Part shown: piece after piece, positions 7,099 to 61,393 of the stretch
Numbering within the stretch: position 1 is the stretch's first letter
Layout: every line of letters begins with the position of its first letter
NCBI GenBank assembly: GCA_034520885.1
Contig: JAXHNE010000002.1
Coordinates: forward strand, 4,787 to 68,786
Length of the DNA stretch: 64,000 nt
DNA from: Candidatus Saccharimonadota bacterium
GTDB lineage: Bacteria > Patescibacteriota > Saccharimonadia > Saccharimonadales > JAXHNE01
Direction: 5' to 3'
Position numbers and translations under genes: made by a program
The notes under the pieces: model-generated
Databases searched by the model: none
Told to the model about the DNA's origin: nothing
Seen by the model: only the letters and a program-made list of their open reading frames with translations

Positions 7099-7548
7099 TT
7101 ACAACTCCATCTCTTGGCGGGCTTTTTCGGGCGGGTTGTTTTTTTCGTCAAACAGCACAATTTTGCTTGGCGTGAATTTATACAATTGATGTTCGTTATC
7201 CCCCGCTTTGAATCTTTCAATAAAATCTTTGCCAGCGCCGTACTTCTTTACGTATTTTGGAAGAATTTCCTCCACGATCTTTCCATCACGAACGACCTCC
7301 GCCCTGCCCTCCGCCTGAATACCAATTACCGGCTGATCGTGTTTGACGGCAATCGCGATGGCGACTTTATCGTTTTTAGCGATTTCCCGGCTGTGCCGGC
7401 GCTCCGGCCAACTGAGCCAATACAAACTAAAATCATCATCCGCCACAAAATAAACCGTACAGACCCACGGCTGCAATTCAGCAGAAGTAGCAACCTGCAT
7501 GAGTGAGGCAACTTTAAAAGCGTCCGAGATGTTATGCCGGGTGGCCAT
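7099..7548 (-). CDS. pyridoxamine 5'-phosphate oxidase-like FMN-binding split-barrel protein
   Basis: Size and pattern (LATSxxxxQPWVxTVYF...AIAIAV...IQAEGRAEVV) resemble the PNPOx / general-stress-protein-26 family. Confidence 0.6.
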   Translation of the reverse strand: MATRHNISDAFKVASLMQVATSAELQPWVCTVYFVADDDFSLYWLSWPERRHSREIAKNDKVAIAIAVKHDQPVIGIQAEGRAEVVRDGKIVEEILPKYVKKYGAGKDFIERFKAGDNEHQLYKFTPSKIVLFDEKNNPPEKARQEMEL

Positions 7549-9754: not shown

Positions 9755-9922
9755 ATGCTTAATATATTCGTTTTACGGATAAAAACGCAAGCACGAGCAC
9801 TTACATACGACCCCTGAAGCACCTCACAAAAATTTTCAAAATTGTAACGATCGTTCAAAATTTGAGATTTTTATTTCGTGCGTGGTTAGAACGATAAGAG
9901 CTGTGGTGGTGGTAGCGTTTTT

Positions 9923-14331: not shown

Positions 14332-14520
14332 TTATTGCTCGATCTTCTTTATCTTGTTCTCGGCCGCCTTGAGCTTGGCTTCCAGCTGCTTAATCAATTC
14401 GGCGCCGCGTTCGTACTTTTTAAAAGCTTCGTCGATATCGATATCTTCCGACTCCAGCTCCGCAAACACCTCGTCCAGTTCTTCGCGTAGTTGCTGATAA
14501 GTTTTATCTGTCATGACCAT
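14332..14520 (-). CDS. xseB: exodeoxyribonuclease VII small subunit
   Basis: 62-aa helical protein; ...LREELDEVFAELESEDIDIDEAFKKYERGAELIKQL is the typical XseB pattern. Confidence 0.85.
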   Translation of the reverse strand: MVMTDKTYQQLREELDEVFAELESEDIDIDEAFKKYERGAELIKQLEAKLKAAENKIKKIEQ

Positions 14521-14935
14521 TAGTTTATAGGTTTTAGTGGTTAGATGCTAGAGATTAGGGGTTAGAGGTTAGTAGGTGGAAGGCGGTAAGCGACTTCGTC
14601 GCAATAGACGATAGATGAGAATTAATAGGTGATAGATGAGGGGTGATGGGTCGTATAGTTGGTAGGTGGCAGTTCTATAGTTCTGAGTAGTGAGTGGTGA
14701 GCTTCAGATAATACTAGAATTAATATCTAGTATTAATTCTAGTATTATTGAAACTTACCAGGCACGAACTGGAAGATAGCAGTTGGCAAGCGGGAAGCTT
14801 TTAGACCCGGAACCGCCGCCACCTCGTTTATCACCTATTAATTCTCATCTATCGTCCTATTGCCTACCGAAGTCGCCTACCTCTTATCTATCACCTATCG
14901 ACTATTATCTATTAACTCTCACCTATGCGGCTTTG
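14521..14935. mobile_element. foldback (MITE/IVS-like) element with heptamer-word arms, a long inverted repeat and a 42-bp AT palindrome
   Basis: The left half is C-poor and the right half is its G-poor complement. 14590-14634 is the inverted repeat of 14829-14876. The near-perfect palindrome is at 14708-14749. There is no ORF, and the element separates xseB from xseA. Confidence 0.7.
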
Positions 14936-16057
14936 CCGCACCTCCCCTTTGCGTGCCGTAAATCTACCCTTGCTTAGTTGAATATCCAGCTCTGCCCCAC
15001 CGGGGATTTTACTTGCGTCACGGGCGGCTTTTCCGTTATGCCGCACCACGGCGAAACCGCGTTTTAACACGTGCTGTGGACTATAAGCTTGTAATAATTT
15101 TTTGCGCTGCTCTAGCGCCTCACGCTGGACGACAAGTTTATCCCGTAACACGTCAAATAGCTGCCGTTTTTGCCGATCCAGCTCGGTTTTGCCCGCGTGC
15201 AACAGTGAACGCAGCAGCCTCGCCAACTCCTGCTGAGAACTTAAAAGTTGCCGGCGTTGATCGCGCTTATCCGGCACCAGCAATTCCGCCGCGTTGCTGG
15301 GCGTGCTGGCGCGCTGATCGGCGGCCTGCTCCGCCAAACTGGTGTCTACCTCGTGCCCGATGGCCACCAAAGTCGGGATCCGGCTGGCGGCAACGGCGCG
15401 CGTCACGTGCTCGTCACTAAAAGCAGCTAGGTCGTCGGCGCTGCCGCCACCTCTGGTAATCACCAGCACGTCAACCGCGTAGTCGGAGTGCGTGTTAAAT
15501 AATTCGATGGCACCGGCGATTTGCCTGGGCGCCACCTCGCCCTGGACTTGGACGTCTTTGTGCAAAATCTCAATCCCCTGCCAACGCGCATTCAACACCT
15601 TTATAAAATCCTTGTAGGCGGCCGATTCGCCGGAGGTGATCAATCCGATTCGTTCCGGCGGATACGGCAAGGTTCGCTTACGCGCGGGATCGAACAGCCC
15701 TTCTTTCGTCAGCTTGGCTTCCAAAAGCGCGGCGGCTTTTTTAATGCTGCCCTCCCCGCTAGGGCGCACACTCCGCAAGTTAATACTGAACCCGAAACGC
15801 GGGTGCAAACGTGGCGTACCGTTAATTTTTACCAGCATACCGTCTTCCAGCGGCCCCGGGAGCTGATACACGCTGCCAAAACACTTTACGCTGGCTTCGT
15901 CATCTTTGACATCGAAATACACCCACTTGTTTTTGCTAATCCGAAAGTTGGCAATCTCACCCTCTACGACCACGTGCGAAAGCGCGAACTCTAGCGTTTG
16001 ATTCACCGTGGCCACGAATTCGACCGGCCGCATCACCAATTCTTCTTGCTCATGCAT
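14912..16057 (-). CDS. xseA: exodeoxyribonuclease VII large subunit
   Basis: OB-fold N-terminus, GLITSGESAAYKDF, VLVITRGGGSADDLAAF, and a coiled-coil C-terminus. The last roughly 8 codons and the stop lie inside the foldback element. Confidence 0.9.
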   Translation of the reverse strand: MHEQEELVMRPVEFVATVNQTLEFALSHVVVEGEIANFRISKNKWVYFDVKDDEASVKCFGSVYQLPGPLEDGMLVKINGTPRLHPRFGFSINLRSVRPSGEGSIKKAAALLEAKLTKEGLFDPARKRTLPYPPERIGLITSGESAAYKDFIKVLNARWQGIEILHKDVQVQGEVAPRQIAGAIELFNTHSDYAVDVLVITRGGGSADDLAAFSDEHVTRAVAASRIPTLVAIGHEVDTSLAEQAADQRASTPSNAAELLVPDKRDQRRQLLSSQQELARLLRSLLHAGKTELDRQKRQLFDVLRDKLVVQREALEQRKKLLQAYSPQHVLKRGFAVVRHNGKAARDASKIPGGAELDIQLSKGRFTARKGEVRQSRIGES

Positions 16058-17211: not shown

Positions 17212-18513
17212 ATGAAGTCACTGGCAATTTTAGGACGGCAACCGGCAATTGGCCTTGCGGAGCTGGAGTCGCTGTATGGCGCCGAAGCCGTACGACCCGT
17301 CGGCGAAAACGCCGTTACCGTTAACATCGCCCCCGATCAAATTGAGTTCAGGCGGCTGGGGGGCACGGTAAAGCTCGCCAAATTATTGACAGTTTTAGAT
17401 TTTACGAACTGGGATAAAATTGAAGATTTTCTGGCCGAGGAACTCCCCAAGCACACCTGTTGCATTACGGAAGGCAAACTGACGCTGGGGCTGAGCGCCT
17501 ACGGGTTCAAAATGAGTCCCAAAAAATTAAACGCCACTGCCCTGTCGCTGAAAAAGACCATCAAAGCCACCGACCGGCCGGTAAGAATTGTACCCAATAA
17601 GTCACTGGAGCTTTCCAGTGCACAGGTACTGCATAACAAATTATTTACCTCGCACAATTGGGAGCTCATTTTGCTGCGTGACGGCAACGAAACCTACCTG
17701 GCACAAACTACCAACGTGCAAGATATCGACGCTTACGCCGCCCGCGACCAAGCCCGGCCGGCCCGGGACGCAAAGGTCGGCATGCTCCCACCGAAATTAG
17801 CCCAAACGATAATTAATTTGGCTGTAGGCCAAATTAAAAAGATTGAAGATCGAGGACAGGAGAACGAAGAAAAAAACCCTCAATCCTCAATCCCCCATCC
17901 TCTATCAGTTTTTGATCCGTTTTGCGGAACGGGCGTGATACTACAAGAAGCGCTACTAATGGGATATCAAGTGACTGGAACGGATCTCGATGCACGTATG
18001 GTCGAATACGCCCGGCGCAACATGGACTGGCTCCAGCAAAAATGGAAGGTGGAAGGTGGAAGATGGAAGGTGGCAGGTGGCAAATGGAAGGTGGAAAATG
18101 GCGATGCAACGGATTACTCCTGGCCTGCGCTCTCAGCTTCCGGCTCTCGGCTCTCGGCTACCATCGCTTGCGAAACGTACTTGGGACGACCGTTTTCTTC
18201 CGCGCCGGATCACGCTACGCTGCAAAAAGTCATGCGTGACGTGGACACCATCCACGAAAAGTTTTTAAAAAACGTGGCCTCGCAGACGGAGTCGGGTTTT
18301 CGAATGTGCCTCGCCGTGCCGGCATGGGCACGCCACAGACAACAGACAACAGACAACAGACAACAGACTTTTAGGCATTTACCGGTGCTTGAAAAATTGA
18401 ACGAACTGGGGTATACTCGATTAAGTTTTGCTCACGCAAGAAACGAGGAGTTGATCTATCACCGAGAAGGTCAAATCGTCGGCCGTGAGCTCGTCGTTCT
18501 AAAAAGAACGTAA
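17212..18513 (+). CDS. RNA (guanine-N2-type, Trm11/UPF0020-like) methyltransferase carrying three in-frame low-complexity inserts
   Basis: N-terminal THUMP-like region and SAM motif I VFDPFCGTGVILQEALLMG. The inserts are at 17841-17906, 18038-18165 and 18335-18368. Confidence 0.7.
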   Translation: MKSLAILGRQPAIGLAELESLYGAEAVRPVGENAVTVNIAPDQIEFRRLGGTVKLAKLLTVLDFTNWDKIEDFLAEELPKHTCCITEGKLTLGLSAYGFKMSPKKLNATALSLKKTIKATDRPVRIVPNKSLELSSAQVLHNKLFTSHNWELILLRDGNETYLAQTTNVQDIDAYAARDQARPARDAKVGMLPPKLAQTIINLAVGQIKKIEDRGQENEEKNPQSSIPHPLSVFDPFCGTGVILQEALLMGYQVTGTDLDARMVEYARRNMDWLQQKWKVEGGRWKVAGGKWKVENGDATDYSWPALSASGSRLSATIACETYLGRPFSSAPDHATLQKVMRDVDTIHEKFLKNVASQTESGFRMCLAVPAWARHRQQTTDNRQQTFRHLPVLEKLNELGYTRLSFAHARNEELIYHREGQIVGRELVVLKRT

Positions 18514-21061: not shown

Positions 21062-21100
21062 GTCAACTTGCGTTCAGAACAAAGCAGGCTCGACGGTATG

Positions 21101-21600
21101 AGTACTAAACCTGGCGTCCTGACTTTGTGCCAGATTGAAATTTTATCCGCGAAGCGCCAAGGAAGCGTACTGAACGTACGGTGACTGCGACTCGTAAGGA
21201 TAAAATACTCAAGCTGGCCAAGAAACATGAATCGCGCGCCTAGTGCTCACACTTGAGTACAGTTTGGTCGTTCTTTTCGAGGAGCGGACCGAGTACTAAA
21301 CCTGGCGTCCTGACTTTGTGCCAGATTGAAATTTTATCCGCGAAGCGCCAAGGAAGCGTACTGAACGTACGGTGACTGCGACTCGTAAGGATAAAATATT
21401 CAAGCTGGCCAAGAAACATGAATCGCGCGCTTAGTGCTCACACTTGAGTACAGTTTGGTCGTTCTTTTCGAGGAGCGGACCGAGTACTAAACCTGGCGTA
21501 CTGACTTTGTGCCAGATTGAAATTTTATCCGCGAAGCGCCAAGGAGGCGTATTAATATACGGTGACTGCGACTCGTAAGGATAAAATATTCAAGCTGGCC
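21101..21600 (+). repeat. tandem repeat, 191-bp unit x about 2.6 (candidate multi-unit ncRNA)
   Basis: Units start at 21101, 21292 and 21483 and are nearly identical by eye. Each has several hairpins, including GCGTAC-TGAAC-GTACGGTGACTGCGA. Confidence 0.85.
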
Positions 21601-21605
21601 AAAGA

Positions 21606-21658: not shown

Positions 21659-22117
21659 TCAGGACGCCAGGTGGGCTTTAACGCGTTCTACCACGTCCGC
21701 AATAACCACCTGCGACTTCACCAAATAATCATCAACGCCCAAATCCTGGGCGCGTTGTTTGTCGCTGTCCTGGCTAAGCGCGGTTAACATTACCACCTTT
21801 ACGTTGGAGGTTTCCGGCGTATTACGCAAAATGTCCAGCACGTCGAACCCGCTGACCTTGGGCATCATCACGTCCAGCAAAATGATATCCGGCTTGTATT
21901 CCATGGCCGAGGAAAGCGCGTCTTCCCCGTTGGGAACCCGTTTGGTATCAAACCCTTCGGCCTGGAAACGCGTGGTGTAGACACTTGCCAGCGCGTCGTC
22001 ATCTTCAACCAGCAGTATTTTCTTGGCCTTTGGCTGCGGATCATTGGACGGATTGGCTTGCGTTTGCTGATTTTCTTGCGGCGCTTGGCCTTGATTTTCT
22101 TGGTTTTCGTCGTTCAT
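21659..22117 (-). CDS. stand-alone response-regulator receiver protein (canonical Asp) with Gln/Asn-rich N-terminus
   Basis: KILLVEDDDALA...PDIILLDVMMPKVSGFDVL...VVMLTALS...DYLVKS. ATG at 22117 is preceded by AAGGAA. Confidence 0.85.
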   Translation of the reverse strand: MNDENQENQGQAPQENQQTQANPSNDPQPKAKKILLVEDDDALASVYTTRFQAEGFDTKRVPNGEDALSSAMEYKPDIILLDVMMPKVSGFDVLDILRNTPETSNVKVVMLTALSQDSDKQRAQDLGVDDYLVKSQVVIADVVERVKAHLAS

Positions 22118-22215
22118 TGAAAGTTCCTTGTTACTACTAGTGTTTATGATGACGCATTCTAATAATTTAAGCAAGCCCCGTGGCGGACTCTTTCACGATA
22201 TTTCGGCAAGTGGCG

Positions 22216-24898: not shown

Positions 24899-25102
24899 GA
24901 TTCCAGGCTCTGAAGCAACCTGGACGAGCGTTGTGAGAATCAGGCGCCCTTGGGTGCGAGGACTGTTTGAGTAAAAATGGTGCCTGTCGGCACTATTTCT
25001 GTGAGTTCCAAGATCGTGGCTTTTCTAAAATGTTCACTATAGCTTCTTCACTGAAAACTGACAACGAACAACCGACAACTGTTATATAACTAGTTATATA
25101 AC
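24899..25102. repeat. solo copy of the 'unit-2' structured module, followed by GACAAC words and a 22-bp AT palindrome
   Basis: 24901-25008 is about 88% identical by eye to 60826-60932. GTTATATAACTAGTTATATAAC at 25081-25102 is a perfect palindrome. Confidence 0.7.
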
Positions 25103-25121
25103 ACTCAAACGATAAACTGGG

Positions 25122-26366
25122 TCAGTTCTTGAGTTCTTTCAAAGCGGCGTCGAGTTGGGGGTCGCGGTCGGCTTCGAAATCTTCTATGGTGCGCTCTACT
25201 TTTTGATCGGGTTCTATGCCCTCTTCGTCGATATTACGGCCGTTCGGGGTAAACCAGCGAGCCACGGTGACTTTTAGTTCCGACCCGTCGCCAAACTCGA
25301 TCAGGCGTTGCACGCTGCCTTTGCCGTAGGTCTTTTCGCCGATAAGCGTGGCTTTGCCGTGATCATGCAGGGCGCCGGCTAAAATCTCACTGGCACTGGC
25401 ACTGCCCTCGTTGATGAGTACTACCGTTGGAATATCGCCAAAAACCGAGTTACCGGAGACCCGCTCGGTTTCCACGCTTTCGTCGGATCGGCGCTGGTCA
25501 ACGATTACTTCGCCGCTATCCACCCACAAACTGGCCACGGCTACGGAGGCGTCCATTAACCCGCCGGGGTTACCGCGAACGTCCACGATTATGCTTTCTA
25601 CGTCTTGGTTCATTAATTCCGTGGCCGCGTCGTTCACGAGACCGGTCGTATCCGTGCCGAACCGAGAGATTTTTATATACCCGATGTTGTCCTCGCGCAC
25701 TTCATATTCCACGCTGGGAATGGTGATTTCATCCCGCGTGATTTCTACCTCAATGCGTTCGGTTTCGCCGCGAATAATGGTGAGTTCTACCGTGGTACCC
25801 TTTTCGCCGCGAATTTTATCCACGGCTTCGGATATGGAAATGTCGTAGGCGTTTTCGCCGTTAATTTCGGCAATCACGTCACGGGGTTGCAGCCCGGCTT
25901 TTTCCGCCGGGAAACCGCTCAGTGGCGCCACGATAACAATGGATTGTTCGTCCTTGCCCAGTTCCGCCCCGATACCGGTAAAGCTGCCGCTTAGCCCCTC
26001 CTCGAACGAGGTCGCTTCTTCTTCGTCAAGATATTCGGTGTATGGATCGCCGCTGGCTTTAACCAGTCCATTTTTTAGGCCTTCAAGGAGCTCGTCTTCG
26101 CTTAGCTCGCCGTCAAAGTTGGTACGCAAGCTGTCGTAGACGGTTTCTACTTCATCGTAAGACAGATCCTCCGGTAGCTCATCACGCTCTACGCTGCCTT
26201 GTTGGATGCTGCGCCGTAGCTCCTCCCGCCCCACAAAGCCGGCACCGATGCCCAGTACGAAAATGAGCAACCCGGCAACACCGAAAAGCGCTACTTTTTT
26301 TAAGCCTTTGGACTTTTGCCCGGACTCACTACCGACCCGTTTTTGAGTGTTCATTTCCTCATTCAT
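25122..26366 (-). CDS. ctp: S41 carboxyl-terminal processing protease with PDZ domain
   Basis: N-terminal TM, a PDZ region, and NEGSASASEILAGAL ... KGSVQ catalytic-region motifs. Confidence 0.9.
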   Translation of the reverse strand: MNEEMNTQKRVGSESGQKSKGLKKVALFGVAGLLIFVLGIGAGFVGREELRRSIQQGSVERDELPEDLSYDEVETVYDSLRTNFDGELSEDELLEGLKNGLVKASGDPYTEYLDEEEATSFEEGLSGSFTGIGAELGKDEQSIVIVAPLSGFPAEKAGLQPRDVIAEINGENAYDISISEAVDKIRGEKGTTVELTIIRGETERIEVEITRDEITIPSVEYEVREDNIGYIKISRFGTDTTGLVNDAATELMNQDVESIIVDVRGNPGGLMDASVAVASLWVDSGEVIVDQRRSDESVETERVSGNSVFGDIPTVVLINEGSASASEILAGALHDHGKATLIGEKTYGKGSVQRLIEFGDGSELKVTVARWFTPNGRNIDEEGIEPDQKVERTIEDFEADRDPQLDAALKELKN

Positions 26367-29368: not shown

Positions 29369-29397
29369 ATTATACACTCGTGACACATGCACCACAA
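29369..29397 (-). promoter_or_regulatory. sigma70-type promoter of ftsE giving a leaderless or near-leaderless mRNA
   Basis: Minus-strand TTGTGG (29397-29392), a 17-nt spacer, then TATAAT (29374-29369) preceded by TG. Seven nucleotides later comes the ATG. Confidence 0.6.
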
Positions 29398-29460
29398 CGG
29401 GCAAAAAGGCAAACAAAGTTCGCTTTATTGCCGTTGCTCTTGGCTCAATAAGTAATTTTC
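29378..29460. repeat. 83-bp direct repeat, copy 1 (overlaps the ftsE promoter)
   Basis: Identical by eye to 29673-29755. Confidence 0.85.
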
Positions 29461-29672
29461 CTTTGTGAGTACTCCCTCACCGTATCTCGATACGCCTCAG
29501 TCCGTTCCTCAAGGAGAAATTACTTCTTGAGCTCAAGTGCATGCCTCACGAAACCCGTATATCCATATCCAATTTTCTTCTGCGGTTCTCCTTCACCGTA
29601 CGGACAAGTACGGCTCAGTCTGCGTCCTCAAAGATAAATTGAATCTGGGATCACAAATGTGAGAGTGGTTTA

Positions 29673-29755
29673 TCGTGACACATGCACCACAACGGGCAAA
29701 AAGGCAAACAAAGTTCGCTTTATTGCCGTTGCTCTTGGCTCAATAAGTAATTTTC
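29673..29755. repeat. 83-bp direct repeat, copy 2
   Basis: Identical by eye to 29378-29460, with a period of 295 bp. Confidence 0.85.
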
Positions 29756-29956
29756 GTTTGCGGTGTTCACTCACCGTACCGAAAGTACGCCTCGCTGAAA
29801 CTCCTCACGAGAAATACCAAATGAGCCTCAAGTGTGTGGCTCTGATTGCAAATCGATTATTTAAGGAGAAATTGCTTCTTGAGCTCAAGTGCAAGTCTTA
29901 GGTTACACGAATTTTTATAGCAATTATAACGGTTTTGGAAGAGCCGGATTTTTAAT

Positions 29957-37199: not shown

Positions 37200-37420
37200 T
37201 GCGTTCGAGTAGTGAGTTATGAGTGCTGAGTAGTGAGTTCTGTGTAAATGATAATAAAGACTTTTTGTGTTCCTTCGCGGAATTATCGCCTTCCTCTCTT
37301 TTTAAAACCGTGAATTACTAAAAACCAAAACTACACCCCTAAAAATTTAATTTAAATTTAATTTAAATTAAATTTCCTACCTCTGTTTTAACGCCTATTC
37401 TTTGCACATAATTATGCAAA
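37200..37420. repeat. foldback-family fragment with GAGTAGTGA words and a 33-bp AT-only near-palindrome
   Basis: GAGTAGTGAGTTATGAGTGCTGAGTAGTGAGTT at 37207-37243 (compare CTGAGTAGTGAGTGGTGAGC at 14684-14703). AAATTTAATTTAAATTTAATTTAAATTAAATTT at 37343-37375. A TTTGCA/TGCAAA hairpin at 37401-37420. Confidence 0.6.
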
Positions 37421-51542: not shown

Positions 51543-52268
51543 TTAAGTTCCGAAACGTCTCTTTCTCGTACCGTACCAGTCTAGCGCATCCTGGAAATCT
51601 TGTAACGTAAAATCCGGCCATAGTTTTTGCGCGAAATACAGTTCGCTATACGCCGCGCGTAAAAGCATGAACCCGCTGGTGCGTTGTTCCCCGGAGGTGC
51701 GAATCACTAAATCCACCGGTGGAATCATGTCGCCTTCATACAAAAGCGAGTGCAAAACGTCCTTGCTCATGTCCTCCGGAGCGATTCTCTTTTCCAAGGC
51801 TTTTTTGTAAACGTCAATCAACTCGTCTTCCCCGCCGTAGTTAAAACACAGCGCCAACGTGCCTTTGGTATTATCTTTGGTTTTTTCTTCCGTTCGGGCA
51901 ATGGCCCGGGCCACGTTTTTGGGGATGTCGGTTTTACGCCCCAAAATTACGATTTTGATTCCCGCTTTATGAAAAGTGTCCAGGTAGTTTTCCACCGCTT
52001 TGGTGACCAACTTCATTAAATACCCGACTTCTTCTTCGGTGCGTGACCAGTTTTCGCTGGAAAACACGAACGCCGAAAGGTACTTTACGCCGCGATCAAA
52101 CGCCCCGAGCGCAATCTCCTTAAAAACTTCCGCGCCTTCCCGGTGCCCTTCCATTGTCGGCAAGCCCTTGGCTTTCGCCCACCGCCGATTACCGTCTAGA
52201 ATTATTCCAACGTGAGTGGGCACGGATTGGGGATTGAGGATTGGGGATTGAGGAGATTCAGTTGGCAT
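51543..52268 (-). CDS. uppS: isoprenyl transferase (undecaprenyl diphosphate synthase)
   Basis: HVGIILDGNRRWAKAKG and RTSGEQRTSGFMLL. The start is either ATG 52268 or GTG 52223; the 15 codons between them are encoded by heptamer-word repeat. Confidence 0.9.
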   Translation of the reverse strand: MPTESPQSPILNPQSVPTHVGIILDGNRRWAKAKGLPTMEGHREGAEVFKEIALGAFDRGVKYLSAFVFSSENWSRTEEEVGYLMKLVTKAVENYLDTFHKAGIKIVILGRKTDIPKNVARAIARTEEKTKDNTKGTLALCFNYGGEDELIDVYKKALEKRIAPEDMSKDVLHSLLYEGDMIPPVDLVIRTSGEQRTSGFMLLRAAYSELYFAQKLWPDFTLQDFQDALDWYGTRKRRFGT

Positions 52269-52626
52269 TTTTACTCCGTAAAGAACCGTTGAGTGCATGA
52301 AGCATACGGGATATTATCGCACATTCTTTCAGTATTTCATCGGCCGGTAGTCGGTATACTTTTTGTGCAGTGATCACCTGTGTTTCGAGTTCGGCCAGCG
52401 AACCAAGAGCAATATCATTAAATCGGATCGTGTCTTTGTTCCCGAACCTTTTTTGACCTTCAGCGATATTTGACGCTACCGAGACTGCCGCCCTTTTCAT
52501 CTGATCGGCAAGAGCAAATTGTTCCGTCTTTGGTAGCTGTGTAATGAGTTCATAGTTTGTCACCGCGAGCTCGACCGCTCGCTGCCACACTTCCAGCTTT
52601 TGATATTCATGAGCACCCATACTCAA
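52258..52626 (-). CDS. four-helix-bundle protein (23S rRNA intervening-sequence protein / Avd-like family)
   Basis: YQKLEVWQRAVELAV...QMKRAAVSVASNIAEGQKRFGNKD...LGSLAELETQ is the family signature. The gene is flanked by inverted heptamer-word repeats. Confidence 0.85.
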   Translation of the reverse strand: MSMGAHEYQKLEVWQRAVELAVTNYELITQLPKTEQFALADQMKRAAVSVASNIAEGQKRFGNKDTIRFNDIALGSLAELETQVITAQKVYRLPADEILKECAIISRMLHALNGSLRSKNAN

Positions 52627-52673
52627 CCTTCCTCAATCTTCAGTCTTCCATCCCCTATCCGAAATAATGACGT

Positions 52674-53237
52674 CTAAACGGTCATTATTTCTGACTCTTT
52701 AACCTTGGCCGTCTCTTCGATTTCTTTTTTGACCTCGTTCATGGCTTGATCAACTTGGTCGCTTAAGCGCTTGGCGTCATCTTCGCTGACGTCGCCGTCT
52801 TTTTTGGCTTTGTTGATAGTGTCCATGGCGTCATGACGCGCGTTACGCAAGCTGATCATGGCATCTTCGGTTTTACCGCCCACGATTTTTACGTATTCGC
52901 GGCGGCGTTCCTCGGTCAGCGGCGGCACCGGAATACGCACTACTTTGCCGTCATCCATGGGGTTCATACCCAGGCCTTGGTCTTCGCGGATGGCTTTGCT
53001 GATAGCTTCCAGGTTGTTGGGGTCGTACGGCGTGATTTGCAAAAGCTGTGGTTCGGGCGCACTTACGCCACCGACCTGAATCAGCGGCATGGGCTGCCCG
53101 TAAGCTTCCACCGTAATGTTGTCCAGCATACTGGGATGCGCTCGCCCCGTACGCACCTTTTTGAGCTCTTCCATGAAGTGCTCCTGCGCCTGCTTAAATC
53201 CTTTTTTCGCGTCGTTAACCACTTGTTCCGGCGTCAT
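52674..53237 (-). CDS. frr: ribosome recycling factor
   Basis: 187 aa; the ...MLDNITVEAYGQPMPLIQVGGVSAPEPQLLQITPYD... pattern is typical of Frr. Confidence 0.95.
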   Translation of the reverse strand: MTPEQVVNDAKKGFKQAQEHFMEELKKVRTGRAHPSMLDNITVEAYGQPMPLIQVGGVSAPEPQLLQITPYDPNNLEAISKAIREDQGLGMNPMDDGKVVRIPVPPLTEERRREYVKIVGGKTEDAMISLRNARHDAMDTINKAKKDGDVSEDDAKRLSDQVDQAMNEVKKEIEETAKVKESEIMTV

Positions 53238-53280
53238 TTATCCTCCAATAATTTACTGGTATCAGTATACAGGATGTAGA

Positions 53281-54100
53281 GTTTGGACGGTAGAGGCGAG
53301 GAGTTGGTAGGTAGTAGATAGGAGATCGGGGATTGAGGATTGAGGATTGAGGAAAGAGTTCTGGGTTCATAGTTCATGGATAGGGTTTAGGGGCTAGGAG
53401 TTGGAAGATGGAAGTTGGAATTTGGTAGATAGAAGATGGTAGTTGGGAGTTAGTATTTCGTAGACAGTTGTCAGTTGTCCGTCTTCAGTAGTTGCGTTGT
53501 TCCAGGCTCTGGCTGAACTGATTGGACGATACGGGCAAAACCAGCAAACAAGCCTCAAGCTTGTTTTTTATGTAGTTACAACTGCCCTCGGCAGTTGTTC
53601 ACTTGGGCTCCAGGCTTCGAAAGCCTCCCCGGTAGTAGAACCAGTTCACTACGGGGCACGCCTGAGGAGCGAGTGTCAAAAGCACAATTTCTGCCGAGGA
53701 CTTGTTTGAGGGGTTGCCGGCTGAAGTATTTTGGCATACCCCGAGTTGTCCGAGCATTGTGCTTTTTGATAATGAGATCATAAAGAGGTTTTCGCGCCTG
53801 TGGCCTTTTTGGGGCACTTTTTGGCTACGCAAAAAGTGTCTGGGGGTGAAGCTGACCAGTCAGCTTCAATAATGACAGAACAAGATAGTGGGTCGGGAAA
53901 GCAAAAGCGAAGCTTTGCGCCGAAAAAACATACTTTGGGGCACTTTTTGGCCATGCAAAAAGTGCCTGACGGGAAGCTGACCAGACAGCTTCATATAATT
54001 CGTTACTGCCTACGATATTGATCGTATAGTTACAGTTGTCTAGCCCCTGTTGCAGAGCAATAATACTAGAATTAATACTAGTATTAATTCTAGTATTATT
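53281..54100. mobile_element. one-armed member of the foldback family: heptamer-word arm, roughly 590-bp structured non-coding core, perfect 42-bp AT palindrome
   Basis: Word arm at 53281-53470, hairpin modules at 53497-53995, palindrome at 54059-54100. The only ORFs here are short and inconsistent. Confidence 0.7.
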
Positions 54101-54120
54101 GAAGTTCCCCGCGAATGTTC

Positions 54121-54357
54121 TTACGCCCGGTCTCTCCCCCTGTCGCTAATGGCGGCACCGACCAAAAGCCCGAACCCGCCGGCTACCTCACCGTTGATAC
54201 TCTGTCCCGCGGCTTCGAAAAGTTCGGTTGAAACGCCGAAGACTCGCTCCGCAACAACCGCTACGCCCAACAACCCCAATCCGACCGCACCAGCCCATCT
54301 ACCAATGCGCTCCATCCTATTTACCGACCGGGGCGATTCAAAGTCTTCGAATTCCAT
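54121..54357 (-). CDS. small Gly/Ala-rich membrane protein
   Basis: 78-aa ORF with hydrophobic Gly-zipper-like segments, located 3 nt downstream of a similar small ORF. Confidence 0.45.
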   Translation of the reverse strand: MEFEDFESPRSVNRMERIGRWAGAVGLGLLGVAVVAERVFGVSTELFEAAGQSINGEVAGGFGLLVGAAISDRGRDRA

Positions 54358-57312: not shown

Positions 57313-57651
57313 ATGAGTTCGTACCGTGACCTAAAAGTCTGGAAAGATTCATTTGAGCTAACAAAATTAGTTTATAAAGCTACTGTCAAGTTACCTTCAA
57401 ATGAAAAGTTCGGTCTCGCTTCACAAATACAGCGTTGCGCAGTCTCGATTCCGTCAAATATTGCAGAAGGCCAACAACGAAAAGGTGCAAACGAATTTAA
57501 ACAGTTTCTTGGGATAGCCCGCGGTTCTGCGGCCGAACTTTCAACGCAACTTCTGCTTGCCCAGGACATCTATTCTATCGAACTGGAAATACTTGTAGAA
57601 AAAACTGAAGAAATTCAAAAAATGCTCTATAGCTTGCAGCAAAAACTGTAA
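57313..57651 (+). CDS. four-helix-bundle protein (23S rRNA intervening-sequence protein / Avd-like family)
   Basis: YRDLKVWKDSFELTKLVY...QIQRCAVSIPSNIAEGQQRKGANEF...GSAAELSTQ. The gene is flanked by GTTGACAGT / CTGTAACCT word repeats. Confidence 0.85.
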   Translation: MSSYRDLKVWKDSFELTKLVYKATVKLPSNEKFGLASQIQRCAVSIPSNIAEGQQRKGANEFKQFLGIARGSAAELSTQLLLAQDIYSIELEILVEKTEEIQKMLYSLQQKL

Positions 57652-57702
57652 ACTGTAACCTGTAACCTGTAAACTAACCATTGTTACCTGTAAACTAGCC
57701 AT

Positions 57703-58753
57703 ATGGATAAAAAGGAACAAGACCTACGCGACGAGCTCGCCGACATTATGAAACAGCTGGAAGATCCGGCTATTTTCAGCACGCCCGAGTATCCCAAAAT
57801 GCCGCCAAAAAAAGATAGAAGACATACTCGCGCTTTACGATGAACTGGCAAAGAGCAAAGAGCAAAGAGCAAAGAGCAAAGAGCTTCTGGACTCTGACGA
57901 TGAAGAATTGGCCGAACTCGCCAAAAGCGAGATAGAAGATCTGGATTTGAAAATTGAAACCCTCGAACTTAAACTAACGGAGGCTTTGACTCCAAAGGAT
58001 CCCAACGACGAAAAAGATGCCATTATAGAAATTCGCGCCGCGGCCGGTGGCGATGAAGCCGCCCTGTTCGCCGGCGAGCTATACCGCATGTACGCCCGTT
58101 GGTGCGAAACGCACGGCTACAAAATAGAACTTATCAACGAAAGTCCCGCGGAAGTCGGCGGGTTCAAAGAAATCAGCTTTTTGGTGCGCGGCGAAGACAC
58201 CTATAAATTCTTTAAGTTCGAAGGCGGCGTACACCGCGTTCAGCGCGTGCCGGAAACCGAAAGCCAAGGCCGCGTGCACACCAGCACCGTGACCGTGGCG
58301 GTCATGCCCGAAGCCGAAGAAACCGACATTGAAATCGACCAAAACGACCTTCGCGTAGATGTCTACCGAGCCGGCGGCCACGGCGGGCAATCCGTAAATA
58401 CTACGGACTCCGCCGTACGCATCACCCACGTGCCAACGGGGGTCGTTGTTACCAACCAGGACGAAAAATCGCAAATCAAAAACAAGCTCAAAGCCATGAA
58501 CGTATTACGTTCCCGCCTGCTCCAGCACAAAATTGACGAAGAAAACGCCAAGCTATCAGCTGAACGCAAAAAGCTGGTCGGCAGCGGCGACCGCAGCGAG
58601 AAAATCCGCACCTACAACTTCCCGCAGGACCGCATTACCGATCACCGTATTGGCTACTCCCGCAGCAACATCCCCGGAGCTTTGGACGGCCAAATAGACG
58701 ACCTCATAGAAGAACTCCACAAAGCCGAACACGAACTAATGAGTAACGAGTAA
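57703..58753 (+). CDS. prfA: peptide chain release factor 1, reading frame broken by one extra base at an A7 run (57807-57813)
   Basis: Frame 1 (57703-57813) encodes MDKKEQDLRDELADIMKQLEDPAIFSTPEYPKMPPKK. Frame 2 continues IEDILALYDEL...PKDPND...GGHGGQSVNTTDSAVRITH... to 58753. Frame 1 stops at 57841. Confidence 0.85.
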
Positions 58754-59637: not shown

Positions 59638-60513
59638 ATGATTACCATTTCTAGGTGGATGGCTAAAAAAACTAAAGCGCTAGAGAGCGCCGGGATTTCC
59701 ACCGCTCGACTGGATTGTTTGGTGCTTTTAGAGGACGCGACCGGTAAAGATCGTTCATGGTTGCTGGCGCATCCGGAGCACGAGTTAGAAAGTTCAAAAG
59801 TTAAAAAGCTGAAAGAGCAAGTTCAGCGGCGGGCTAAGCATGAGCCGCTGGCCTATATTCGTGGGCGGAGTGCTTTTTATGGCCGGGAGTTTTTGGTGAA
59901 CGAACATACTTTGCAGCCCCGGCCGGAAACGGAAACGATGATCGACCACTTAAAATCACTGTACAAGGTTGAACCTTGTACAGAAGCTAAAAGCTCTGAG
60001 CGAAAAGCTCTGAGCATAGTAGATGTAGGGACTGGATCTGGTTGTATTGGGATTACCGCCAAGCTGGAGCTGCCGGATGCGGAAGTGTATGCCACGGACA
60101 TTTCCGAAGAATGCTTAAAAATAGCCCGAAAAAACGCCCGAAAACTAAAAGCCAATGTGGAGTTCCACAAAGCTAATCTCCTCCTCTCCCAAAAAAATAA
60201 TTCTCACTTTTTGAACGATCGTTCAAAAAGTGAGAATATTGTTTTGCTGGCTAATTTACCTTATGTTCCGGAAGGTTTCACTATAAACCAAGCCGCGATG
60301 TTCGAGCCGGACGTTGCCATATTCGGCGGTAAGGACGGATTGGATTACTACCGCGAGTTATTCGCCCAGATTGAAACGCTAAAAACTAAACCACATTTCA
60401 TTTTTACCGAAAGCCTACCAACGCAGCACAAAGACCTGACTGCAATCGCAGAAAAACACGGGTTTCGGCTTCATGAATGCCAGGATTTTATTCAAGTATT
60501 TATTAGGCGTTAG
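59638..60513 (+). CDS. prmC: release-factor glutamine methyltransferase PrmC/HemK
   Basis: EPLAYIRGRSAFYGREF, VDVGTGSGCIGI, and NLPYV in place of NPPY. ATG at 59638. The stop TAG (60511-60513) lies within the terminal motif of the downstream foldback element. Confidence 0.85.
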   Translation: MITISRWMAKKTKALESAGISTARLDCLVLLEDATGKDRSWLLAHPEHELESSKVKKLKEQVQRRAKHEPLAYIRGRSAFYGREFLVNEHTLQPRPETETMIDHLKSLYKVEPCTEAKSSERKALSIVDVGTGSGCIGITAKLELPDAEVYATDISEECLKIARKNARKLKANVEFHKANLLLSQKNNSHFLNDRSKSENIVLLANLPYVPEGFTINQAAMFEPDVAIFGGKDGLDYYRELFAQIETLKTKPHFIFTESLPTQHKDLTAIAEKHGFRLHECQDFIQVFIRR

Positions 60514-61393
60514 ATGCTAGACGTTAGAGGGTAGAGGGTAGAAGTTGGAAGTTGGAATTTGGAAGGTGGAAGATGGTAGGCGACTTCTTCGCAAAAGGTG
60601 AGAGTTAATAGATAAGGGTTAATAGATGATAGATGAAGGGTGGTAGATGGAAGATGGAAGATAGAAGATGGAAGATGGGGAAAATAATAAGTAAAACATA
60701 AATAGTAAGTTTCCGGGCTCTGCCTGAAACGATTGGACGGCGCCTCGGGTAAAAACCGACAAACAAGCTTCAAGCTTGTTTTTTATGTAGTTACAACTGC
60801 TCCGGAGCAGTTGTTCACTTGGCCTCCAGGCTCTGGAACAACCTGGACGGACGTTGTGGGAATCAGGCGCCCTTGGGTACGAGGACTGTCTGAGCAGAAA
60901 TGGTGCCTGGCGGCACCATTTCTGTGAGTTTCACAGTAAGCCTGATTGTGACAACGGCCGTAGCTGTTGTTTCAGCCGCCTGTCGGCTTTTGTTGCAATC
61001 TTTTGCCGACTCAAAAGATTGCTGACGGGGAGCTGGTCAGTCAGCTTCGCTATTGGCGGAACAAGATAGTGGGTCGGGAAAGCAAAAGCGAAGCTTTGCG
61101 CCGAAAAAACATACTTTGGGGCACTTTTTGGCCATGCAAAAAGTGCCTGGTGGTGAAGCTGACCAGACAGCTTCTATTAGTAGTTACCTACTACTTTGAT
61201 TGTATAGTTATGGCCGTATCGCCCTTGTTAAAACGTAATAATACTAGTATTAACTCTAGTATTAATACTAGTATTATTTTTACTAACTATGAGGTGCTAT
61301 CTTCCATATCCTAAATTCCATCTTCCAAGCACTATCTTCTAGCCCCTGTCTTCAATCTTCAATCCCCAATCTTCATTCCGTAACAACTATGAA
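60509..61393. mobile_element. complete foldback-family element: two inverted heptamer-word arms, structured core, 42-bp AT palindrome
   Basis: Left arm 60509-60700 (C-poor), core 60712-61176, palindrome 61237-61278, right arm 61285-61393 (G-poor, the reverse complement of arm-type sequence also seen at 53300-53440). It fills the whole prmC-htrA convergent spacer. Confidence 0.75.

Follow-up and report, generated by a model that had tools for sequence, protein, structure and literature searches.

Palindromic arrays in a Saccharibacteria contig

The window analysed here is a stretch of 64,000 nt from contig JAXHNE010000002.1 of a Candidatus Saccharimonadota bacterium (assembly GCA_034520885.1). 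An A/T-rich palindrome of about 42 nt lies in three long non-coding spacers of the window, between xseA and xseB, between frr and a small membrane open reading frame (ORF), and between prmC and htrA. All three copies (A, B and C) are intergenic, and the spacers that hold them are called elements A, B and C. The palindrome is an array of 12-nt units that also occurs in other genomes of the Candidate Phyla Radiation (CPR, Patescibacteria), where its dyad symmetry is maintained. The copies and one possible relative are listed below; word arms are arms made of repeated heptamers.

14708-14748, no strand: copy A, between xseA and xseB, about 3 nt off the symmetry centre of the word arms
25080-25103, no strand: possible relative, a 24-nt perfect AT-rich palindrome TGTTATATAACTAGTTATATAACA with one central CTAG
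54059-54100, no strand: copy B, 3 x 12 nt (AATACTAGAATT / AATACTAGTATT / AATTCTAGTATT) plus AAT/ATT ends
61237-61278, no strand: copy C, between convergent prmC and htrA, with the right word arm 20 nt away

The initial annotation described copy B as a perfect palindrome, and its letters (AATAATACTAGAATTAATACTAGTATTAATTCTAGTATTATT) bore this out. The symmetry extends by one more pair, C54058/G54101, which gives 44 nt (54058-54101) with arms of 22 nt each and no loop. No match to this palindrome was found in 100 dinucleotide-preserving shuffles. The palindrome is real and non-random. A minus-strand ORF (54121-54357) has its stop codon 20 nt upstream of copy B.

Copy A, annotated at 14708-14749 as a variant with one extra base, indeed has that base, exactly at the centre, between perfect arms of 18 nt that leave a 5-nt loop; its first two CTAGs are spaced 13 nt apart. 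In copy C, the A and T that copy B has at positions 12 and 31 are exchanged for T and A, respectively, so that symmetry is kept as annotated. At positions 18-19, however, copy C is altered without compensation (AACT for AATA), leaving a 17-bp stem and an 8-nt loop, and the claim that this copy is symmetric holds only in part. Every departure among the window copies is therefore either compensated (12/31) or adjacent to the loop (the extra base of A, positions 18-19 of C), as a hairpin constraint predicts.

Tandem Repeats Finder reported the palindrome as a 12-nt tandem repeat of about 3.2 copies. The units are AATnCTAGnATT, with CTAG every 12 nt and ATTAAT between, and the consensus unit AATACTAGTATT is palindromic in itself. 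The window has 12 occurrences of the octamer AATACTAG (0.8 expected), every one of them inside the three copies. The ACTAG/CTAGT core had been singled out as notable, but ACTAGT alone was not enriched in the window (8 against 6.6 expected).

Two further AT palindromes had been annotated as related. The one at 25080-25103 may belong to the 42-nt family. It forms a weak hairpin (-7 to -10 kcal/mol) and follows the stop codon of a minus-strand ORF (25122-26366) after 18 nt; on the plus strand it is about 70 nt downstream of a repeated module at 24902-25010. The other, at 37343-37375, is an AT simple repeat of period 5/11 without CTAG and is probably unrelated.

The window copies fold into hairpins on both strands as RNA (-16.6 to -23.5 kcal/mol, z = -5 to -8.4) and also as DNA (-11.8 to -15.8 kcal/mol). 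For copy B the values were -21 to -22 kcal/mol as RNA on either strand and -15.8 kcal/mol as DNA. The feet of the window copies read AAUAAU...AUUAUU(G). A search of the whole window against Rfam 15 gave nothing at the gathering score; at E <= 5 there was nothing on the palindromes or the surrounding modules and only chance-level matches elsewhere in the window. There were no tRNA or transfer-messenger RNA genes in the window. Published work was searched for the sequence and for palindromic repeats of CPR or Saccharibacteria, and nothing relevant was found.

Distribution of the array in CPR genomes

A collection with one genome per species was scanned with the pattern CTAGTATTAANWCTAGTATT. The scan returned 40 loci, about half of them in CPR genomes, although CPR account for only a small part of the collection. 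Five loci were in the Saccharibacteria metagenome-assembled genome (MAG) SRP144015_co1_122, all of the form ATAATACTAGnATTAATnCTAGTATTAATnCTAGTATTATTG, and five were in Parcubacteria GW2011_GWA2_43_11; further loci were in Falkowbacteria, Paceibacterota and other Saccharibacteria. MAG SRP144015_co1_122 shares protein-coding homology with the window. A second scan, of metagenomes and with N allowed at the four variable positions, returned 18 loci representing about 10 distinct arrays, the main ones Parcubacteria-like or Saccharibacteria-like by tblastx. Family members have 2-4 units. The 64-kb window has 3 copies, and two other CPR MAGs have, by the strict pattern, no fewer than 5 loci each.

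At the other loci, the CPR copies examined were mostly intergenic. Rough ORF calls put about 10 of the spacers in tandem, 6 in convergent and 5 in divergent arrangement. At 17 loci, about 30 flanking genes were scanned with Pfam, and the neighbours are unrelated housekeeping genes, including dus, rplU, rmuC, mreC, efp, tpiA, ftsH, polX, ppdK, a class I (Trp/Tyr) tRNA synthetase and pgk. The array often lies 6-70 nt past a stop codon. Many members have runs of A before and T after the stem, such as A7/T7 at locus L010, T8 at L027, A5/T5 at L068 and A7/T5 at L039.

Arrays in the other CPR genomes stand alone in ordinary short spacers and have no word arms. The tie to word-repeat arms proposed in the initial annotation is thus not general, armless palindromes being present in related genomes, and in this respect the annotation is partly refuted on its own terms. 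The presence of the array also differs between related genomes at orthologous sites. MAG SRP144015_co1_122 carries two sub-variants of the array that share flanking sequence, and copying is therefore indicated. Several metagenome matches lay within about 130 nt of a contig end, and a Logan contig with an identical frr gene ends 94 nt upstream of frr, as is expected of a multi-copy repeat.

A second repeated, terminator-like palindrome, ATAGATTTGACGGCCGTCAAATCTAT, was seen in MAG SRP144015_co1_122, beside the AT-rich array or 85-100 nt from it, at three loci (L003 about 7462-7490, L011, and L037 4269-4297).

Conservation of the dyad symmetry

Covariation was assessed by aligning 22 distinct arrays, taken from the window and from other genomes, with 500 shuffles as the null. 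Changes on both sides were found at 13 of 22 mirror pairs, against 7.8 +/- 1.3 in the shuffles; the arrays in this alignment are related to each other, and CTAG and ATTAAT were held constant by the search patterns. The full-length hairpin had 81.6% paired cells against 74.2 +/- 1.1 in the shuffles. The covariation score was 0.203, against 0.087 in the shuffles and 0.05-0.08 in registers slid by 1-3 columns. None of the 500 shuffles equalled the observed paired cells, two-sided changes or covariation score.

Among the roughly 10 metagenome arrays of the second scan, 7 were Watson-Crick at both free mirror pairs; when the window copy and the genome-scan copies were pooled with them, the count was 8 of 16. 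All four Watson-Crick combinations were found at the variable positions, in homogeneous arrays of ACTAGT, TCTAGA, GCTAGC or CCTAGG three times over. Mixed arrays had complementary outer units, ACTAGA...TCTAGT and ACTAGG...CCTAGT (A..T and G..C, respectively).

Dyad symmetry is maintained beyond chance. The preservation of symmetry, from which selection had been argued on a single compensated pair in the window, is borne out by the mirror pairs of the 22 arrays. It had been attributed to a hairpin or to a dimeric binding site; covariation across genomes does not by itself tell these two apart, and it could equally reflect a co-evolving dimeric protein.

Elements A, B and C

The elements and the annotated genes beside them are as follows.

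14332-14520, minus strand: xseB (exonuclease VII small subunit), downstream of element A
14521-14911, no strand: element A, 391-nt non-coding spacer between xseA and xseB
14912-16057, minus strand: xseA (exonuclease VII large subunit), whose frame enters element A for about 9 codons before its stop
52674-53237, minus strand: frr (ribosome recycling factor), with a conserved extended -10 TGTATACT at the left edge of element B
53238-54120, no strand: element B, 883-nt spacer between frr and the small membrane ORF
53795-54100, plus strand: B/C module, 306 nt, matching 60977-61278 (302 nt) at 82% over 308 aligned positions
60514-61393, no strand: element C, 880-nt spacer between convergent prmC (plus) and htrA (minus)

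Element A consists, in order, of heptamer word arms, a central region, the palindrome, a central region and the complementary word arms. Its best arm segments (14607-14641 and 14822-14856) are 94% complementary. The arm midpoint is 14731.5 and the palindrome centre is at about 14728. As RNA, element A folds into one long hairpin (-160 kcal/mol, z = -12.8) in which the palindrome is a side hairpin of the 180-nt centre. The suggestion that the palindrome is the apical loop of a long RNA stem fits copy A only, and there as this side hairpin within the central loop. In the related contigs L079, L080 and L081, xseA and xseB overlap or are separated by 5-9 nt. The insertion boundary of element A (14912-14940) is marked by a small GC hairpin, GCGGCAAAGCCGC.

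Element B contains word repeats (53269-53477), a terminator-like hairpin (53546-53566), a conserved region (53661-53839), tandem hairpin pairs and the palindrome. The word repeats are on the left side only, with no right arm, and the palindrome comes last before the next gene. In the related contigs L044, L045 and L046 the spacer upstream of frr is about 50-57 nt. The region at 53661-53839 (minus strand) is conserved at 80-90% at the orthologous site in L078 (2276-2450), where palindrome and word arms are absent; upstream of frr it may serve as a leader or represent a small RNA.

Element C runs through GA-type words, a terminator-like hairpin (60761-60781), repeated modules, the segment 60977-61278, the palindrome and CT-type words. 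Its arms (60648-60676 and 61299-61327) are 86% complementary, with a midpoint at about 60988; copy C, 20 nt inside the right arm, is about 270 nt from that midpoint. The palindrome was annotated as central in the elements, which holds for copy A and not for copies B and C. The homology between elements B and C stops exactly at the right edge of the palindrome. In related contig L042 the htrA-prmC spacer measures 660 nt; it includes homologous modules, and its degenerate ATTAAT array of 12-nt period is placed differently.

The gene order of the window matches other Saccharibacteria contigs. Elements A and B are lineage-specific insertions, because the orthologous spacers are only 0-57 nt in related genomes. 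No direct (target-site) duplication was found at the palindrome ends, nor, against the empty sites of L079 and L081, at the element A site.

Two structured modules were also observed in these elements. A two-hairpin unit (GGCACTTTTTGG...CAAAAAGTGCC, then GAAGCTGACCAGnCAGCTTC) occurs twice each in elements B and C (53813-53993 and 60995-61175), and its L042 counterpart has compensated stem changes. A structured-looking module of about 110 nt occurs twice in the window (24902-25010 and 60825-60933, 89% identity). It is kept at 74-85% in the htrA-prmC spacer of L042 (2785-2975), has no Rfam match and could be an undescribed small RNA.

Additional repeats

Tandem heptamers are pervasive in the window and several are 100% perfect, recalling the STRR of cyanobacteria. 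Examples are found at 14534-14577, 18335-18368, 52224-52254, 53399-53451, 57643-57675, 57848-57884 and 60541-60678. A UPF0020/N6_N4-type methyltransferase ORF (17212-18513, plus strand) has in-frame heptamer repeats at 17841-17906, 18039-18101 and 18335-18368. These add peptides (KVEGGRWKVAGGKWK, HRQQTTDNRQQ) that are missing in the orthologues of L079, L080 and L081, and the protein has 433 amino acids against 388-410 in those orthologues.

Two genes of PF05635 ('23S rRNA intervening-sequence protein') lie in the regions 52223-52661 and 57313-57651. The first (52258-52626, minus strand) is placed between word arms of 32 nt (52223-52254 and 52630-52661, 81% complementary), is not at the orthologous site in L044 and L046, and looks like the cargo of a word-arm hairpin element. 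The second adjoins rpmE and has other heptamer repeats at its border.

Three more repeats were noted. Upstream of a response-regulator gene (21659-22174, minus strand), a spacer of 647 nt contains 2.6 copies of a 191-nt unit (21100-21602, 97% identity). The prmC ORF includes a perfect palindrome of 38 nt, ATTCTCACTTTTTGAACGATCGTTCAAAAAGTGAGAAT (60200-60237), in a loop 4-7 residues longer than in orthologues, and a related copy is intergenic at 9828-9876. An 88-nt direct repeat (29378-29465 and 29673-29760, 99% identity, 295 nt apart) lies in a spacer around a doubtful ORF of 80 amino acids.

Possible roles of the array

We tentatively read the palindrome as a REP-like (repetitive extragenic palindromic) dispersed repeat, in which a hairpin of about 20 bp, A/U-rich and formed in either orientation, is selected, probably for a role at transcript ends or in transcript processing. 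The family is dispersed in CPR genomes, and a member consists of 2-4 tandem 12-nt units (ATTAAT-n-CTAG-n'). Either strand, as RNA or as single-stranded DNA, folds into one and the same A/U-rich hairpin, about 17-20 bp long, with CUAG as its loop and feet rich in A and in U, and the palindrome would work alike in both orientations because it is its own reverse complement. On transcripts the hairpin might act as a weak bidirectional terminator, as a barrier at RNA 3' ends or as a duplex of RNase III size. The array would spread or persist as a small repeat, and in the Saccharibacteria genome of the window it has become a fixed part of larger insertions with heptamer word arms. Self-complementarity, the A- and T-rich feet, the placement after stop codons and the tolerance of loop-adjacent changes favour a hairpin that acts on transcripts regardless of orientation. 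The repeat family and its range among taxa, the insertions, the capacity to form hairpins and the symmetric covariation are demonstrated here, and we infer action at the RNA level, the particular role and the way of spreading.

Several observations weigh against this reading. The stem is A/U-rich, with G-C pairs at 4 of 20 positions, and the window copies have a poor U-tract (AUUAUUG). Convergent and divergent spacers are about equal (about 6 and 5, by the rough ORF calls), whereas true terminators and the REPs of E. coli avoid divergent spacers. A classical GC-rich terminator is already near the arrays at L023 and L037 and in elements B and C. An efficient terminator in copy A would sever xseB from xseA, which are tightly coupled in relatives. 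CTAG and much of ATTAAT are constant across phylum-level distances, which structure alone does not explain; part of this conservation is imposed by the search patterns. The five copies of SRP144015_co1_122 have 1-2 uncompensated mismatches each. There was no G-U excess of the kind that selection at the RNA level would leave, mismatches of G-T/A-C type being about one third, as by chance. No transposase or other spreading machinery was found among the window ORFs or the flanking ORFs scanned.

The array may also be a DNA site for a putative conserved CPR protein, dimers of which would bind successive palindromic units of 12 bp or CTAG-N8-CTAG. Candidates would be a protein that associates with the nucleoid or organises the chromosome, or a recombinase or resolvase for which the array is the site. 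We regard this as rather unlikely. Several observations speak for it: CTAG is invariant and ATTAAT nearly so, with variation at the two 'n' positions of each unit; the 12-bp spacing is fixed over 2-4 units; the array is found across CPR phyla and in every intergenic type regardless of the direction of transcription; and the CTAG-less array of L042 keeps ATTAAT every 12 nt. Co-evolving protein specificity could also give symmetric covariation between genomes. The operator of E. coli TrpR is CTAG-based (ACTAGT), and the LexA box CTGT-N8-ACAG has a 4-N8-4 layout similar to that of the array. The invariance of CTAG and ATTAAT comes, however, partly from the search patterns, and the occurrence of all Watson-Crick combinations at 'n', together with the complementarity between outer units, points to pairing of the whole array and not unit by unit. 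The 13-nt CTAG spacing in copy A would, by a shift of one base, bring a 12-bp array out of phase. No candidate DNA-binding gene is near the copies, 20 small window ORFs gave no helix-turn-helix or ribbon-helix-helix match, and the neighbours share no function, some of the arrays being in convergent spacers.

The array may instead be a selfish or neutral by-product, in which a slippage-amplified 12-nt unit is copied within a small mobile or recombination-prone repeat and its symmetry is renewed mechanically, for example by hairpin-templated repair or strand switching. The unit is a tandem 12-mer of variable number in a genome rich in slippage-type heptamer repeats, its presence differs among relatives, and its position changes between the window and L042. 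Imperfect sub-variants are copied with their flanks in SRP144015_co1_122, and assemblies break near the array. The earlier suggestion of a slippage or recombination hot spot fits the variation between 2 and 4 units and the stop of the B/C homology exactly at the palindrome. We nevertheless hold a by-product to be unlikely: neutrality is difficult to square with the recurrence of the same array in distant CPR lineages whose genomes are small and streamlined, the copies stay perfect or near-perfect despite A/T-rich, slippage-prone DNA, and neither a target-site duplication nor a transposase was seen.

A further reading takes (ATTAAT-n-CTAG-n')2-4 as a CPR-wide cis-element that would be read, as hairpin or as duplex, by a dedicated protein and that would, in some Saccharibacteria, seed or anchor cargo-carrying word-arm hairpin insertions of a new, non-autonomous class. 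The reader might be a transposase or recombinase specific for hairpins, or else a factor of the nucleoid or of segregation, and the cargo would be, for example, PF05635 genes or modules resembling non-coding RNA. We consider this scheme improbable.

It is quite improbable that the palindrome represents two overlapping, outward sigma-70-type promoters (TTAATA-16/17-TATTAT) that restore flanking transcription, for example of xseB. A promoter scan did find TTAATA-16-TATTAT (9/12 matches) on both strands in copies B and C, and by eye the same hexamers stand 17 nt apart in copy A, where the insertion parts xseB from xseA and xseB must be transcribed from some source. The middle unit at L012 even has a perfect TTGACA 16 nt before TATTGT, 47 nt upstream of a gene. 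A match of 9/12 is, however, near chance (14 found against 9.7 expected in 10 kb). The TCTAGA, GCTAGC and CCTAGG variants (L060, L062 and L063) lose the -10-like hexamer and keep the symmetry, copies in convergent spacers would yield antisense RNA only, and the promoter of frr, inferred from conservation, is the extended -10 TGTATACT, unlike the palindrome.

A protein operator, proposed in the initial annotation, is unlikely, as the arrays occupy convergent, tandem and divergent spacers beside unrelated housekeeping genes. The operator of a regulon was rejected, the roughly 30 flanking genes at 17 loci having no common function and the 20 small window ORFs including no DNA-binding protein. CTAG avoidance or a restriction-site decoy was dismissed (CTAG observed/expected 0.78, unremarkable), as was a three-frame stop signal, TAG and TAA being in a single frame per strand by inspection. 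Phage origin was discarded because the viral-contig matches were coding Ser/Ile/Asn/Thr repeats or an unrelated phage-like contig with the match maybe within an ORF. Cyanobacterial origin, considered for the heptamer words, was likewise discarded: HIP1 (GCGATCGC) showed no enrichment in the window, and a Candidatus Saccharibacteria MAG has proteins with 100% identity to the frr and xseA products.

Significance

To our knowledge, the genomes of CPR bacteria are tiny and streamlined, few regulatory or mobile elements have been recognised in them, and their non-coding DNA is almost unexplored. An array shared by Saccharibacteria, Parcubacteria/Paceibacterota and Falkowbacteria would be among the first cis-elements described for CPR. 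It would give a handle on transcript ends in Saccharibacteria, on a binding or mobilising protein, and on the tolerance of insertions of about 400-900 nt inside operons in some Saccharibacteria. In practical terms, the repeat breaks metagenome assemblies. Should the array prove to be no more than a selfish repeat of REP type, it would extend a known class modestly; discovery of a dedicated CPR protein or of a means of mobilisation would make its significance much greater.

Relation to known repeats and signals

Like intrinsic bidirectional terminators, the array is a perfect dyad with A-rich 5' and T-rich 3' feet, which would place U after the hairpin on both strands, and it often lies a few tens of nt past stop codons and between convergent genes. 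Bidirectional termination calls for a U-tract straight after the stem and an A-tract before it; such runs are clear at L010, L027, L039 and L068, and the window copies have the poorer AAUAAU...AUUAUU(G). An intrinsic terminator, however, has a G+C-rich stem of about 5-14 bp, while the stem of the array is long and nearly all A-U (G-C 4/20). A terminator scan picked 53546-53566 and 60761-60781 and not the palindrome. Intrinsic terminators are depleted between divergent genes; by the rough ORF calls the array is not, and it also occurs inside the xseA-xseB operon. Unlike intrinsic terminators, it is conserved in sequence between sites and genomes, and at several loci it sits beside classical terminators.

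Tandem operators built on CTAG include the ACTAGT...ACTAGT of E. coli TrpR, and MetJ binds met-box arrays. The array is alike in layout, with repeated short palindromic units centred on CTAG on which cooperative dimers are possible. Its period is 12 bp against 8 bp in operators of TrpR/MetJ type, and its variable positions covary and are not fixed. Unlike those operators, it has no link to a regulon or promoter, and no cognate repressor gene was found among the small window ORFs scanned. Miniature inverted-repeat transposable elements have terminal inverted repeats and a target-site duplication, whereas the array is wholly inverted repeat without a flanking direct duplication.

The word-arm elements have parallels of their own. 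The intervening sequences of 23S rRNA are long stem-loops cleaved by RNase III and can carry a PF05635 gene. The word-arm elements likewise have long complementary arms around a loop, which in one of them (52223-52661) encloses a PF05635 gene as apparent cargo, but they sit in mRNA spacers and even within ORFs, and not in rRNA. STRR are heptamer repeats of cyanobacteria; both they and the word arms are tandem heptamers, the host here being a member of the Saccharibacteria and not a cyanobacterium.

The closest known class to the array is that of the REP/REPIN elements, which are mobilised by RAYT transposases (Bertels & Rainey 2011, PMC3116915; PMC3337134). The cognate RAYT gene (Y1/HUH transposase) is single-copy and usually has REPs on its flanks. 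No RAYT was found among about 20 window ORFs, about 30 flanking ORFs scanned or the precomputed Pfam labels of related contigs. REPs are G/C-rich and lineage-specific, whereas the array is A/T-rich, made of tandem 12-mers and of phylum-level range in CPR. The REP stem has a 5' GT(A/G)G; the array ends in (C)AATAAT / ATTATT(G) and has its tetranucleotide, CTAG, internally three times. REPs number tens to hundreds per genome; the density of the array in the window is low (3 per 64 kb), and two CPR MAGs have at least 5 loci each by the strict pattern. REPs are imperfect palindromes of about 20-40 nt, and the window copies measure 42-44 nt. Nevertheless, both are short (20-45 nt), hairpin-forming, extragenic, multi-copy and non-coding, and in both the sub-families of a genome share flanks, and copies often lie near gene 3' ends and are present or absent at orthologous sites of relatives.

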